DNA of 49,174 bases from Escherichia coli (GCF_003334255.1 NZ_QOWU01000040.1); one strand, 5' to 3'; shown: positions 31,863 through 49,174, counted from the first letter of the stretch. The notes: generated from the sequence alone by a model not told the origin. Made by a program: numbers and translations.

Positions 31863-31956
31863 AAAATAAATATATTCTGAAAAAATATGCCGACTCTTGC
31901 ATGAGAGTGGGCATATTGCCATGCTGACCGGAGACTCATACAAGGATGTAAAATTT

Positions 31957-32337
31957 ATGTTACGTATATTTATCCCAACATCTAACGGTAAGATTTCCAG
32001 ACGTCGTTATATATTTTCATTTATTTTAATAAATTTCATTTTTGCCTTTCTTATTATCTTTTTTAACGATGGAGAAGCAGGCTTTCTTGTTATAGTCTCT
32101 ACCATCGTACTCCATTATCTCGTCATCAACATGAATTGCCAGCGACTCCGTGATAGTGGTTTCATCTATATAAAAACTTATGTTTTTGGTACATTAGCAG
32201 TATATATCATCTCTATCATCACAATGATAGCCGAAGATTTTGCCTGTTCAGGCAATGGTTCGATGATTTTTTTGATTTGTTATTTTTCCACTTTCAGTAT
32301 GCTAATGCTTGCACCTACTGATTCATCAAAACAATAG
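31957..32337 (+). CDS. yigG: Small inner-membrane protein of unknown function (YigG)
   Basis: Track ORF 31897..32337. I recall yigG as 126 aa, which matches the ATG at 31957 ([18 protein letters not shown]); alternative starts are 31897 and 31921. Very AT-rich and hydrophobic. Confidence 0.6.
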
Positions 32338-32350
32338 TTATGGAGTATTT

Positions 32351-32731
32351 ATGAGTAAGGAATATATGAACGATGGTTCATTAAGTGAAAAATGGAAATA
32401 CCGATTTAATTTTTATGATCAACATGGTTTTCCTGGATTCTGGGGGGCAACACCAGAATATAAAGCAGCATTTAAAGCATTAAAAGTAAGACAACGCTTA
32501 ACTATTCAAATGAATTTCATTGCTTTCTTCTGTTCCTGGATATATTTATTTGTCCTGGGGTTATGGAAAAAAGCAATTATAGTTCTATTACTTGGTATTC
32601 TATCTCTATTTGTTGGTGCACTAATTGGCGTTAACATTCTGGGAATTGCCGTAGCAGCCTATGTTGCTGTTAACACGAACAAATGGTTCTATGAGAAAGA
32701 GGTAAAAGGGTTAAATACCTGGAGCCTTTGA
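32351..32731 (+). CDS. yigF: Small inner-membrane protein of unknown function (YigF; DUF2628-like as I recall)
   Basis: Track ORF 32309..32731. Start trimmed to the ATG at 32351 (MSKEYMNDGSLSEKWKY), preceded by GGAG, giving 126 aa. Confidence 0.65.
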   Translation: MSKEYMNDGSLSEKWKYRFNFYDQHGFPGFWGATPEYKAAFKALKVRQRLTIQMNFIAFFCSWIYLFVLGLWKKAIIVLLLGILSLFVGALIGVNILGIAVAAYVAVNTNKWFYEKEVKGLNTWSL

Positions 32732-43997: not shown

Positions 43998-44383
43998 GAC
44001 GTATCGCCTGATTTGCTACCCGTCATGACTGTGATTCCGCCAACATCAACGGTAACACGCGGCATTCGGGATATTTCGTATGTCAAAGGTAACCGTTACC
44101 ACTTTTCGCGCCTGGTTTTTTTAGTTTCACGACGAAAAAATGGTCTAAAACGTGATCAATTTAACACCTTGCTGATTGACCGTAAAGAAAGATGCGCTAC
44201 ATACAAGTGTAGCACCGTTTATTCTCTGTAAATTCCTTATTACAACGGCGTGAAACGCCTGTCAGGATCCACTGCCAGACCTCATTTTACGGTTTGCGCA
44301 GGCGTCTACGTTTCACCACAACACTGACATCACTCTGGCAAGGATGTTAGGATGGACCACGGATGATAATGACGGTAACAAGC

Positions 44384-45325
44384 ATGTTAGACAATGTTTT
44401 AAGAATTGCCACACGCCAAAGCCCACTTGCACTCTGGCAGGCACACTATGTCAAAGACAAGTTGATGGCGAGCCATCCGGGCCTGGTCGTTGAACTGGTA
44501 CCGATGGTGACGCGCGGCGATGTGATTCTTGATACGCCGCTGGCGAAAGTAGGCGGAAAAGGCTTATTTGTAAAAGAGCTGGAAGTCGCGCTCCTCGAAA
44601 ATCGCGCCGATATCGCCGTACACTCAATGAAAGATGTGCCGGTTGAATTCCCGCAAGGTCTGGGACTGGTCACTATTTGTGAGCGTGAAGATCCTCGCGA
44701 TGCCTTTGTGTCCAATAACTATGACAGTCTGGATGCGTTACCGGCAGGCAGTATCGTCGGGACGTCCAGTTTACGTCGCCAGTGCCAACTGGCTGAACGC
44801 CGTCCGGATCTGATTATCCGCTCCCTGCGCGGCAACGTCGGCACTCGCCTGAGCAAACTGGATAACGGCGAATACGATGCCATCATTCTTGCCGTAGCCG
44901 GACTAAAACGTTTAGGTCTGGAGTCACGTATTCGCGCCGCGTTGCCACCCGAGATTTCTCTTCCGGCGGTAGGACAAGGTGCGGTGGGTATTGAATGCCG
45001 CCTTGATGATTCACGCACTCGCGAGCTGCTTGCCGCGCTGAATCACCACGAAACTGCACTGCGCGTTACCGCAGAACGCGCCATGAATACCCGTCTCGAA
45101 GGCGGATGTCAGGTGCCAATTGGTAGCTACGCCGAGCTTATTGATGGCGAAATCTGGCTGCGTGCGCTGGTCGGCGCGCCGGACGGTTCGCAGATTATTC
45201 GCGGTGAACGCCGCGGTGCGCCGCAAGATGCCGAACAAATGGGGATTTCGCTGGCAGAAGAGCTACTGAATAACGGCGCGCGCGAGATCCTCGCTGAAGT
45301 CTATAACGGAGACGCCCCGGCATGA
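44384..45325 (+). CDS. hemC: Porphobilinogen deaminase (hydroxymethylbilane synthase)
   Basis: Track ORF 44363..45325. Start trimmed to the ATG at 44384 ([20 protein letters not shown]), 313 aa. Confidence 0.9.
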
Positions 45326-46062
45326 GTATCCTTGTCACCCGCCCGTCTCCCGCTGGAGAAGAGTTAGTGAGCCGTCTGCGCACACTGGGGCAGGTGGCCT
45401 GGCATTTTCCGCTGATTGAGTTTTCTCCGGGTCAACAATTACCGCAACTTGCTGATCAACTGGCAGCGCTGGGGGAGAGCGATCTGTTGTTTGCCCTCTC
45501 GCAACACGCGGTTGCTTTTGCCCAATCACAGCTGCATCAGCAAGATCGTAAATGGCCCCGACTACCTGATTATTTCGCCATTGGACGCACCACCGCACTG
45601 GCACTACATACCGTAAGCGGACAGAAGATTCTCTACCCGCAGGATCGGGAAATCAGCGAAGTCTTGCTACAATTACCTGAATTACAAAATATTGCGGGCA
45701 AACGTGCGCTGATATTACGTGGCAATGGTGGTCGTGAGCTAATTGGGGATACCCTGACGGCGCGCGGTGCTGAGGTCACTTTTTGTGAATGTTATCAACG
45801 ATGCGCAATCCATTACGATGGTGCAGAAGAAGCGATGCGCTGGCAAGCCCGCGAGGTGACGATGGTCGTTGTTACCAGCGGTGAAATGTTGCAGCAACTC
45901 TGGTCGCTGATCCCACAATGGTATCGTGAGCACTGGTTACTACACTGTCGACTATTGGTCGTCAGTGAGCGTTTGGCGAAACTCGCCCGGGAACTGGGCT
46001 GGCAAGACATTAAGGTCGCCGATAACGCTGACAACGATGCGCTTTTACGGGCATTACAATAA
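45322..46062 (+). CDS. hemD: Uroporphyrinogen-III synthase
   Basis: 246-aa ORF starting [19 protein letters not shown]; 4-bp ATGA overlap with the hemC stop. Confidence 0.95.
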
Positions 46063-46083
46063 CTCTCATAACAGGAAGCCATA

Positions 46084-47265
46084 ATGACGGAACAAGAAAA
46101 AACCTCCGCCGTGGTTGAAGAGACCAGGGAGGCCGTGGACACCACGTCACAACCTGTCGCAACAGAAAAAAAGAGTAAGAACAATACCGCATTGATTCTC
46201 AGCGCGGTGGCTATCGCTATTGCTCTGGCGGCGGGCATCGGTTTGTATGGCTGGGGTAAACAACAGGCCGTCAATCAGACCGCCACCAGCGATGCCCTGG
46301 CTAACCAACTGACGGCATTGCAAAAAGCCCAGGAGAGCCAAAAAGCCGAGCTGGAAGGCATTATTAAGCAACAAGCTGCACAACTTAAGCAGGCGAATCG
46401 TCAGCAAGAAACGCTGGCAAAACAGTTGGATGAAGTCCAACAAAAGGTCGCCACCATTTCCGGCAGCGATGCTAAAACCTGGCTGCTGGCTCAGGCCGAT
46501 TTTCTGGTGAAACTCGCCGGACGGAAGCTGTGGAGCGATCAGGACGTCACGACCGCTGCAGCGTTGCTGAAAAGTGCAGACGCCAGCCTGGCGGATATGA
46601 ATGACCCGAGTCTGATTACCGTTCGTCGGGCAATTACCGATGATATCGCCAGCCTTTCTGCAGTATCGCAGGTGGATTATGACGGCATCATCCTTAAGCT
46701 TAATCAGCTTTCAAATCAGGTAGATAACCTGCGTCTGGCCGATAATGACAGCGATGGTTCGCCGATGGATTCAGACGGTGAAGAGCTTTCCAGTTCCATC
46801 AGCGAATGGCGTATCAATCTGCAAAAAAGCTGGCAGAACTTTATGGACAACTTCATTACGATTCGCCGTCGTGATGACACCGCCGTACCGCTGTTAGCGC
46901 CAAATCAGGATATCTATCTGCGCGAAAATATTCGCTCTCGCCTGCTGGTCGCAGCACAAGCTGTACCGCGTCACCAGGAAGAGACTTATCGCCAGGCGCT
47001 GGAGAACGTCTCCACCTGGGTACGTGCTTACTACGATACTGATGATGCCACCACCAAAGCGTTCCTCGACGAGGTGGACCAGTTAAGCCAGCAAAATATC
47101 TCGATGGATCTTCCGGAAACCCTGCAAAGCCAGGCGATGCTGGAAAAACTGATGCAGACTCGCGTGCGTAACCTGCTGGCACAACCGGCAGCGGGGACAA
47201 CGGAAGCTAAACCTGCACCTGCACCGCAAGCTGATACTCCGGCAGCCGCGCCGCAAGGAGAATAA
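46084..47265 (+). CDS. hemX: HemX membrane protein (function unclear)
   Basis: 393-aa ORF with one transmembrane segment and a coiled-coil region ([18 protein letters not shown]...). Confidence 0.9.
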
Positions 47266-47267
47266 CC

Positions 47268-48464
47268 ATGCTAAAAGTGTTATTGCTCTTTGTGTTGCTG
47301 ATTGCGGGGATCGTGGTTGGCCCGATGATTGCCGGCCATCAGGGTTATGTGCTGATCCAGACCGACAACTACAATATCGAAACCAGCGTCACGGGCCTGG
47401 CGATCATATTGATTCTGGCGATGGTAGTGCTGTTTGCCATTGAGTGGCTACTGCGGCGGATCTTCCGCACTGGCGCGCACACCCGTGGGTGGTTTGTCGG
47501 ACGTAAGCGTCGCCGTGCACGTAAGCAGACCGAACAGGCGCTGCTGAAACTGGCGGAAGGCGATTATCAGCAAGTTGAAAAGCTGATGGCGAAAAATGCC
47601 GATCACGCGGAACAACCGGTGGTGAACTATCTACTGGCTGCCGAAGCCGCGCAACAACGTGGTGATGAAGCACGCGCCAACCAACATCTGGAACGCGCAG
47701 CGGAGCTGGCCGGCAACGACACCATTCCGGTAGAAATCACCCGCGTACGTCTGCAACTGGCCCGTAATGAAAACCATGCTGCACGCCACGGCGTGGATAA
47801 GCTGCTGGAAGTTACGCCACGCCATCCGGAAGTATTACGTCTGGCGGAACAGGCGTATATCCGCACAGGTGCATGGAGTTCGCTGCTGGATATTATCCCA
47901 TCAATGGCGAAAGCCCATGTTGGTGATGAAGAACATCGTGCAATGCTGGAACAACAGGCATGGATTGGCCTGATGGATCAGGCGCGTGCCGATAACGGTA
48001 GCGAAGGTTTGCGTAACTGGTGGAAAAACCAAAGCCGGAAAACGCGTCATCAGGTAGCGTTGCAGGTGGCAATGGCGGAACATCTTATTGAATGTGACGA
48101 TCATGATACTGCCCAGCAAATTATCATCGATGGCCTGAAACGCCAGTACGACGATCGCCTACTGCTGCCGATTCCTCGACTGAAAACAAACAATCCGGAA
48201 CAGCTGGAAAAAGTGCTGCGCCAGCAAATCAAAAACGTCGGCGATCGCCCGCTGTTGTGGAGCACACTGGGCCAGTCACTGATGAAGCACGGAGAATGGC
48301 AGGAAGCATCGCTCGCCTTCCGCGCAGCGCTGAAACAACGTCCGGACGCCTACGATTACGCATGGCTTGCCGACGCGCTGGACAGACTGCACAAGCCGGA
48401 AGAAGCTGCAGCGATGCGTCGCGACGGTTTGATGTTAACGTTGCAGAATAACCCGCCACAGTAG
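47268..48464 (+). CDS. hemY: HemY membrane protein (TPR-like; function in heme metabolism unclear)
   Basis: 398-aa ORF starting MLKVLLLFVLLIAGIVVGPMIAGHQGYVLIQTDNYNIE; 2 bp after hemX. Confidence 0.9.
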   Translation: MLKVLLLFVLLIAGIVVGPMIAGHQGYVLIQTDNYNIETSVTGLAIILILAMVVLFAIEWLLRRIFRTGAHTRGWFVGRKRRRARKQTEQALLKLAEGDYQQVEKLMAKNADHAEQPVVNYLLAAEAAQQRGDEARANQHLERAAELAGNDTIPVEITRVRLQLARNENHAARHGVDKLLEVTPRHPEVLRLAEQAYIRTGAWSSLLDIIPSMAKAHVGDEEHRAMLEQQAWIGLMDQARADNGSEGLRNWWKNQSRKTRHQVALQVAMAEHLIECDDHDTAQQIIIDGLKRQYDDRLLLPIPRLKTNNPEQLEKVLRQQIKNVGDRPLLWSTLGQSLMKHGEWQEASLAFRAALKQRPDAYDYAWLADALDRLHKPEEAAAMRRDGLMLTLQNNPPQ

Positions 48465-48501
48465 TTCCTTCTCACCCGGAGGCAAGCACCTCCGGGGCCT
48501 T

Positions 48502-48718
48502 CCTGATATATAAAAAAACGCCTGCTCTTATTACGGAGCAGGCGTTAAAACAGGTCTGTATGACAACAAGTGGGTGCTTCACTCAACGTTGTGTCCATGG
48601 TGTCTGATGAGGCATAAGCGACATCTGTCAGTGGACGATAAGCACCGTAAACGGCTCTGCGTCATTCCGGAGTTTATGAGGCACTAAGGCGAACATAAGA
48701 GATGGAATGAGCATCTAC
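48502..48718 (-). ncRNA. glmZ: GlmZ small regulatory RNA (activator of glmS translation; formerly SraJ/RyiA)
   Basis: Minus strand reads GTAGATGCTCATTCCATCTCTTATGTTCGCC ... GACCTGTTTTAACGCCTGCTCCGTAATAAGAGCAGGCGTTTTTTT, which I recognise as GlmZ, including its intrinsic terminator (10-bp stem plus T7). No ORF on this strand. The span includes the whole T-run, so the 3' end is approximate. Confidence 0.85.
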
Positions 48719-49174
48719 TCGTTTATTATGCCACAGAGAATCGGGAAATAACATCCCTTAACACTTGTTATGAGATAATTCTGTAATCCTCTTTGCTTCC
48801 TGAGTAATAACTTCCTGAGTGAATATTTAACCTGAGCTTGATCCTACACATACTTATTATGAATGATAAAATTCATTCAATTAATAACACATATATTAAT
48901 TGCCGTTAAAACTAAAAACAGCATCAATAATCAACGCGATATAATAAACCTGCCTTACATATCAACTGCGCCAGAGGTAGGATTGAAAACGCTCTCCTGA
49001 TTTTCCAATTCATTTTCTGGATAAATAAATAATTTATTTTTGTCACTATTATTTATGTAATCATCCTGTCAGGGAGAGGGATCTCAATTATCAATGCGGT
49101 AATGACTCCAACTTATTGATAGTGTTTTATGTTCAGATAATGCCCGATGACTTTGTCATGCAGCTCCACCGATT

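Follow-up and report, generated by a model that had tools for sequence, protein, structure and literature searches.

The DNA analysed here, referred to as the window, is a stretch of 49,174 nt from Escherichia coli (GCF_003334255.1, NZ_QOWU01000040.1), and the region under study is its right edge, positions 48719–49174. Immediately to the left lies the gene for the small RNA GlmZ, which Rfam places at 48718–48512 on the minus strand; the region under study therefore starts at −1, directly next to the GlmZ 5′-end (+1, position 48718). A terminator-like hairpin (an intrinsic terminator) lies at 48546–48517, and the placement agrees with that of glmZ in the curated MG1655 annotation. When positions 44000–49174 were searched against Rfam at E ≤ 1, nothing besides GlmZ was found. 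In some lineages an additional segment of ∼590 bp separates hemY from the glmZ 3′-end and encodes a 196-aa hypothetical protein (WP_001260226.1; loci L021 705–1295, L024 705–1295 and L034 405–995); this segment is absent from both the window and K-12. GlmZ and the elements upstream of it, as read from the sequence, are:

48512–48718, minus strand: GlmZ small RNA gene (Rfam RF00083; 218.4 bits against a gathering score of 60; full model, 1–214).
48719–48758, minus strand: minimal glmZ promoter fragment (−1 to −40), matching the published ATGTTA-N15-tggCATAAT.
48730–48725, minus strand: −10 hexamer CATAAT, occupying −12 to −7, 6 nt before +1.
48733–48731, minus strand: extended-10-like tgg.
48748–48734, minus strand: the 15-nt spacer of the glmZ promoter, TTTCCCGATTCTCTG.
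48754–48749, minus strand: −35 hexamer ATGTTA, with three of six matches to the consensus.

The region was originally singled out as AT-rich, and this was borne out: its G+C content is about 33.5%, compared with 52.6% for the whole window, and the quoted AT run (ATAAATAAATAATTTATTTTTGTCACTATTATTTATG) was found on the plus strand at 49021–49057. Among 48,719 segments of 456 nt, 48719–49174 ranks 315th lowest in G+C (lowest 0.65%). Equal AT-richness was seen at only one other place in the window, about 31.85–32.7 kb (yigG/yigF); positions 31897–32731 hold yigG and yigF (DUF2628), at about 31–33% G+C. The region is not uniform, since positions 48719–49097, which are native spacer, have 32.2% G+C and positions 49098–49174, which are IS1, have 40.3%. 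The claim that it contains no ORF of 60 aa or more also held. The longest ORF has 45 aa (48863–49000, plus strand), and a second small one has 40 aa (48924–49046, minus strand). The lack of ORFs is, however, uninformative by itself, because the 7–17 stop codons found per frame are at chance level for AT-rich DNA. A repeat search returned only short, chance-level repeats, the best being CTTCCTGAGT, present twice (at 48796 and 48811).

Read along the minus strand towards GlmZ, the sequence is ATGTTA, TTTCCCGATTCTCTG, TGG, CATAAT, AAACGA and then the G at +1, with the −35 and −10 hexamers (48754–48725) separated by 18 bp ending in tgg. Goepel et al. 2011 (NAR 39:1294, PMC3045617) describe ATGTTA-N15-tggCATAAT as the sigma-70 glmZ promoter of Escherichia and Shigella, so the region carries the glmZ promoter of E. 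coli type. In K-12, DNA beyond −40 is dispensable for glmZ expression, removal or mutation of the −35 hexamer lowers expression drastically, and mutation of the −10 hexamer abolishes it (PMC3045617). Between −1 and −379 of glmZ, the window and K-12 show 100% identity. Given this identity and the published experiments on the K-12 sequence, the original prediction of a minus-strand glmZ promoter with CATAAT as its −10 was right; the element is the very motif validated in K-12 by deletion and point mutation. The accompanying suggestion of sigma-54 and GlrR scans led nowhere: no match was found in 48719–49174 to the sigma-54 element TGGCAC-N5-TTGCW (up to two mismatches allowed) or to the GlrR site TGTC-N10-GACA (up to one mismatch allowed), which by these motif scans places the promoter outside the sigma-54/GlrR-dependent glmY/glmZ class. 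By experiment, E. coli glmZ is independent of both factors: in K-12, deletion of glrR or rpoN was without effect, and E. coli GlrR did not bind glmZ DNA from −424 to +32 (PMC3045617). Judged by identity with K-12, positions 48719–49097 carry the already-characterised constitutive glmZ promoter. Sigma-70 RNA polymerase would be expected to start GlmZ at 48718 without an activator; no part would be played at glmZ here by sigma-54, GlrR or IHF, the factors on which glmZ transcription depends in Yersinia and Salmonella.

Positions 48719–49097 correspond to positions 1–379 of the 424-bp K-12 glmZ–aslA spacer, at 100% identity, and aslA starts in K-12 at spacer position 425, on the strand that is plus in the window. 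The original prediction expected aslA to be the next gene, with its regulatory region inside the stretch. The first part agrees with reference E. coli, where aslA lies on the plus strand 424 bp from the GlmZ 5′-end; the second fails for the last 77 nt, which are IS1 and not aslA regulatory DNA. The part of the spacer beyond the minimal glmZ promoter is presumably the upstream and leader region of aslA, and the following elements were recorded in it:

48759–49097, no strand assigned: rest of the native spacer (K-12 positions 41–379), identical to K-12 and dispensable for glmZ.
48758–48787, plus strand: predicted aslA promoter TTAACA-18-TGTAAT (computational prediction of PMC3946193; TTAACA at 48758–48763, TGTAAT at 48782–48787).
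48845–48872, plus strand: candidate TACACA-16-TAAAAT with an upstream TG, the sole plus-strand sigma-70-like match of the scan, at chance level.
49087–49060, minus strand: sigma-70-like match TTGAGA-16-GATGAT from the consensus scan.
49072–49045, minus strand: sigma-70-like match from the consensus scan.

A literature search for a mapped aslA promoter returned none, the nearest source being a Genomic SELEX table in which the aslA–glmZ spacer is listed as bound by RpoD holoenzyme and flagged HNS (PMC3946193, Shimada et al. 2014, who surveyed the whole genome in vitro). The aslA promoter predicted there would stand back-to-back with the glmZ promoter. The same source gives TTGAGA-17-GATGAT as a predicted ‘glmZ’ promoter, which corresponds to the minus-strand match at 49087–49060 (16-nt spacer in our scan). 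This site lies 340 nt upstream of the true glmZ promoter and 11 nt from the IS1 junction, and is probably a chance match. The sigma-70 consensus scan found three sites where 2.3–2.5 were expected by chance, so the match at 48845–48872 provides no evidence of function. The strict scan was discarded as a means of locating the aslA promoter, as it returned chance-level sites and missed the proven glmZ promoter (whose −35 matches at only three of six positions). Nearer to aslA, K-12 has a perfect palindrome, GTCATCA-TTT-TGATGAC, 21 nt before the aslA ATG and between the IS1 site and the Shine–Dalgarno sequence (locus L001, 3388–3404). Several IS1 insertions of other strains land in or beside it, and in divergent lineages two substitutions break it and create CGTCAA-CATT-TTGACG on a shifted axis. 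This palindrome could be an operator or a leader hairpin.

Identity with K-12 (strain ER1709) runs up to ...TATCAATGC and ends between 49097 and 49098, where the window changes to GGTAATGACTCC. K-12 continues with TTAATTACGTCATC...GCATGGAATTT, and the aslA ATG follows 46 nt later. The features at this junction are:

49089–49097, no strand assigned: predicted IS1 target site, (T)ATCAATGC; K-12 identity ends after 49097 (spacer position 379), and a duplication of this site would be expected.
49098–49174, minus strand: right end of IS1, 77 nt, comprising the terminal repeat and the 3′-end of the transposase gene.
49098–49120, no strand assigned: IS1 terminal inverted repeat IRR, GGTAATGACTCCAACTTATTGAT, exact at 23 of 23 positions (∼30 nt in a wider definition).
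49172–49116, minus strand: 3′-end of insB/insAB′, 19 codons specifying SVELHDKVIGHYLNIKHYQ, followed by a stop codon at 49115–49113.

The IRR occurs exactly once in the window, with no occurrence expected by chance, and the insB stop lies 16 nt from the IS1 tip, as in annotated copies. The 77 nt are identical at all positions to positions 1–77 of a complete 768-bp IS1 in 15 of the 23 copies compared. When the region was compared by megablast with 5,426 complete E. coli genomes, bases 1–379 of the query gave one match per genome, between hemY and aslA, while bases 380–456 matched features annotated in RefSeq as ‘IS1 family transposase’, at a median of ∼10 places per genome among the matches listed. 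IS1 is a 768-bp element with inverted repeats at its ends, the reading frames insA, insB and insAB′, and target duplications of 8–9 bp (PMC12428005); here, its terminal inverted repeat is present and colinear host DNA is precisely interrupted. The comparator IS1 copies at this locus are 767–768 bp long and annotated with the programmed frameshift; in IS1, a −1 frameshift yields the InsAB′ transposase. From its sequence, 49098–49174 is identified as the right end of IS1, inserted 45 bp upstream of the K-12 aslA start. As the window holds one junction only, we infer from the comparators that the element is full-length, that its target is duplicated and that aslA lies beyond it. No record among the 5,426 complete genomes contained all 456 nt in one piece at 100% identity, so this IS1 copy appears to be strain-specific.

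The original prediction also pointed to ATG codons near the edge as possible starts of an ORF running out of the window. Such codons do exist, at 49140, 49147 and 49158, but all three lie inside IS1, antisense to insB, and none is the start of a host gene. When the sequence was completed with a full IS1 copy, those at 49140 and 49158 met a stop after 12 and 6 codons, respectively. The ATG at 49147 opens a 96-aa ORF wholly within IS1 with no match to aslA, the product of which starts MEFSFSPKRL.

Insertions at this locus were then sought among the 5,426 complete E. coli genomes by searching for the spacer joined to an IS1 end in either orientation, one representative per group being mapped. IS1 was found in the orientation of the window in 21 records, and in the opposite orientation in 32. 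Within the 424-bp spacer, IS1 is present in 41 genomes, the result of at least 20 independent events in both orientations; the window, in which the spacer ends at 379, adds a 21st. The sites, in spacer coordinates (position 1 being window 48719), are:

18–25: inside the glmZ core promoter.
42–50: used twice, in both orientations.
69–77.
About 119.
139–147.
148–156.
293–301.
About 336–344.
339/340–348: three events.
372–380.
379–386.
381–388.
382–390.
About 391–398.
392–399.
406–413/414: two events, one a tandem double IS1.
427–434: inside aslA.
445–452: inside aslA.

The 22 comparator insertions in or next to the spacer are full-length IS1 elements (767–768 bp) with colinear flanks, and target duplications of 8–10 bp were found in 21 of the 22 junction pairs. 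The exception was the tandem copy of strain QEC11-421, for which the script found none and the flanking alignments indicate reuse of spacer 406–414. This strain (L002, 3416–4958) carries a tandem pair of IS1 elements, 7 bp apart, at a distance of 11 bp upstream of the aslA ATG; their identities to the reference copy are 99.5% and 96.2%. In E. coli 23CRST047 (L019, 1501–2268), as in 23CRST049, IS1 lies at −18 to −25 of glmZ, between the −10 and the −35 (window 48736–48743; duplication GAGAATCG). In 23CRST047 the native −35 has been moved about 776 bp away, and the IS1 tip provides GAGTCA (three of six consensus matches, like the native ATGTTA) at the same 18-bp spacing, with tgg-CATAAT kept; GlmZ may still be made in this strain, since a replacement −35 is at hand and the −10 is retained.

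With at least 20 other independent insertions there, the spacer has been targeted by IS1 repeatedly. Of the 21 events, 13 fall in spacer 336–414 (the 79 bp on the aslA side, 19% of the spacer; binomial P = 1.5 × 10^−5, for an interval chosen after seeing the data), which corresponds to window 49054–49097 and DNA beyond the edge. At 38% G+C, compared with 31% for the rest of the spacer, this is not its most AT-rich part. The same 9-bp targets, AACACTTGT (spacer 42–50; L016, L030) and TAATCATCC (339/340–348; L020, L026, L031), were reused independently in different strains and in both orientations, which points to a strong local site preference of IS1. The idea that an IHF site might cause such clustering stems from classical IS1 work; it found no support here, the perfect IHF consensus WATCAANNNNTTR having no match in the K-12 spacer. 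Per IS1 copy, insertions in the spacer were ∼8 times as frequent as expected from the fraction of the chromosome that it occupies (a raw value among the matches listed, which ignores kinship and dispensability). As controls, the cyaA–hemC spacer (443 bp, 46% G+C, thus of similar size but normal composition) had IS1 in 0 of the 5,426 genomes, and a yigG/yigF coding segment as AT-rich as the spacer (424 bp, 31.6% G+C) had IS1 in or near it in about nine. The aslA coding sequence, left out of the quantitative comparison, had, among the matches listed, at least one IS1 event plus one of ISVsa5 and one of IS2. It is interrupted by IS1 in SW07163, SW071611 and SW071619; in the E. coli strains E2 and L16-131 the interrupting sequences are an ISVsa5/IS10-like element and IS2. 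Elsewhere, all that is left of aslA is a remnant of about 138 nt (53 codons) beside aslB, as in loci L005, L006, L011–L013, L015–L017, L020, L025, L027, L030, L031 and L033; with the remnant present in many E. coli lineages, aslA is frequently lost in nature. A preference of IS1 for AT-rich DNA is known from classical work, and this taste, together with the dispensability of the spacer, explains most of the pattern. No report of an IS1 hot spot at aslA was found in the literature, and it is doubtful that the spacer is a genuine, possibly selected hot spot. If the clustering did reflect selection on aslA expression, turning off or rewiring this often-deleted gene, and not just the taste of IS1 for AT-rich DNA, it would represent a natural regulatory switch driven by an insertion sequence, similar to that of bgl.

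We are highly confident that the region is the K-12-like, phylogroup-A glmZ–aslA spacer (379 of 424 bp) with the glmZ promoter, followed by the right end of IS1 45 bp before the aslA ATG. The alternative that survives best is that the IS1 sequence does not belong to a simple insertion and is instead a solo or truncated end, or marks the edge of a deletion or inversion brought about by IS1, with aslA or the rest of the spacer no longer beyond it. The window contains a single junction, a genome with IS1 at a median of ∼10 places (among the matches listed) offers copies between which recombination is possible, and losses at this very locus, such as the 138-nt aslA remnant, are common; in strain C9, which has such a remnant, a second IS1 also disrupts the adjoining aslB. 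Nevertheless, the comparator insertions, QEC11-421 excepted as to the script-detected duplication, are of the simple kind, full-length and with colinear flanks and 8–10 bp duplications, and aslA is intact in the complete genomes nearest to the window, which match it at 100% identity over 19 kb, so that a rearrangement is unlikely here.

It is less probable still, and by a good way, that, besides its promoters, the spacer contains a small-protein gene missing from the annotation or a further small RNA gene. In favour of this are the ORFs of 45 and 40 aa and the minus-strand sigma-70-like matches at 49087–49060 (the one listed in PMC3946193) and 49072–49045. However, promoter-like matches occur in the number expected by chance, the Rfam search at E ≤ 1 returned GlmZ alone, and the curated MG1655 record has no other feature annotated between glmZ and aslA. 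Removal of the DNA beyond −40 leaves glmZ expression unchanged (PMC3045617), at least 20 independent IS1 insertions, distributed along the spacer, have been tolerated, and its identity between E. coli lineages is 93–95%, with substitutions spread throughout.

That all 456 bp are native regulatory DNA, with aslA starting at the edge ATGs or just beyond, is hardly credible: aslA does follow on the plus strand in uninterrupted genomes, and the spacer is of similar length there (424 bp), but the window departs from the reference at 49098 with a 77/77 match to IS1, the K-12 sequence leading to the aslA ATG past the break (TTAATTACGTCATC...GCATGGAATTT) is absent from the window, and the edge ATGs lead to early stops or to the ORF antisense to insB within IS1. 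As to the nature of the window itself, its first position corresponds to K-12 4,035,247, which falls within the rrnA P1 promoter, 284 nt ahead of rrsA (positions 1–90 begin in rrnA P1, and the reverse complement of 1–70 is TCAGAAAATTATTTTAAATTTCCTCTTGTCAGGCCGGAATAACTCCCTATAATGCGCCACCACTGACACG). Over the last 19 kb of unique sequence, the window matches several complete phylogroup-A genomes at 100% identity and K-12 almost as closely. The start in rrnA P1 and the IS1 end at the opposite edge suggest that the window represents a complete contig of a short-read assembly, ending on each side at a repeat, the rRNA operon and IS1. A length of 77, that of the IS1 overlap here, is a common largest k-mer of short-read assemblers. 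An assembly artefact, with the spacer chimerically joined to an IS1 read, might be suspected in a sequence that looks like a draft contig stopping inside a repeat, yet it is extremely improbable, since the switch coincides precisely with the first base of the IS1 terminal repeat, just as it does where IS1 has really inserted, authentic insertion sites from finished genomes cluster around this position (spacer 372–380, 379–386 and 381–388), and a contig end overlapping a repeat by one k-mer is, with graph assemblers, a normal sign of true adjacency.

In the preferred reading, that of a simple insertion, IS1 would have transposed into the spacer after position 379, with its transposase gene reading along the minus strand, towards glmZ, and its left end, which has a weak promoter pointing inward, would face aslA. 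The far junction would then be expected to read GGCAGCATCACC followed by (T)ATCAATGCTTAATTACGTC / (T)ATCAATGCTTAATTACGTCATC, an 8–9 bp repeat of 49089/49090–49097. Transcription of glmZ should be unaffected, since IS1 lies 380 bp upstream and only 40 bp are required. The gene aslA, in turn, would be cut off from all DNA upstream of −45, including both candidate promoters: IS1 appears to sit between aslA and every candidate promoter for it, these being a computational prediction and a chance-level match. No promoter would be expected in the 45 bp nearest to aslA, which are too short to hold one plus a leader with the Shine–Dalgarno sequence GGAG. If still present beyond IS1, aslA is thus probably silenced or rewired, or dependent on fortuitous transcription.

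Taken as a whole, this is known biology: a known promoter, a known spacer and a common IS end that had previously been overlooked, insertion of IS1 into AT-rich spacers being commonplace. The sole mildly new element is the recurrence of IS1 in the glmZ–aslA spacer at the population level. For annotation, the right edge of the window is to be taken as a mobile-element junction, and its terminal ATGs should not be called as an ORF. The gene aslA, which serves to mark virulence when E. coli is typed, is probably severed from its upstream region in this strain. The recurrent IS1 hits could be used to study the target choice of IS1, or selection on GlmZ or AslA levels.

The glmZ promoter described here has the same sequence from +1 to −379, and the same elements at the same distances, as that of K-12 (group III of Goepel et al. 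2011, PMC3045617), which likewise lacks sigma-54 and GlrR motifs; the only difference is that the upstream DNA is ended at −379 by IS1. The sigma-54/GlrR/IHF-type glmY/glmZ promoters of Yersinia and Salmonella share with it the gene, glmZ, and its position beside hemY, but their TGGCAC-N5-TTGCW element and three TGTC-N10-GACA sites are absent from the region. The IS1 end resembles the 768-bp IS1A/IS1B-type elements of E. coli and Shigella in its terminal repeat, its 77/77 identity, the C-terminus of InsB and its insertion into AT-rich, non-coding DNA, although only 77 nt of it fall within the window, unlike those complete elements. The closest parallel for the spacer as an IS1 target may be the bgl regulatory region, an AT-rich target of IS1 and IS5 upstream of an H-NS-silenced operon (PMC9678765, PMC8836124). 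The glmZ–aslA spacer is likewise AT-rich, is flagged as an H-NS site, lies upstream of a poorly expressed gene and has received IS1 in many separate events and in either orientation. Unlike those at bgl, however, the insertions at aslA cluster 11–85 bp before the start codon, which makes them more likely to cut the gene off from its promoter than to relieve silencing.
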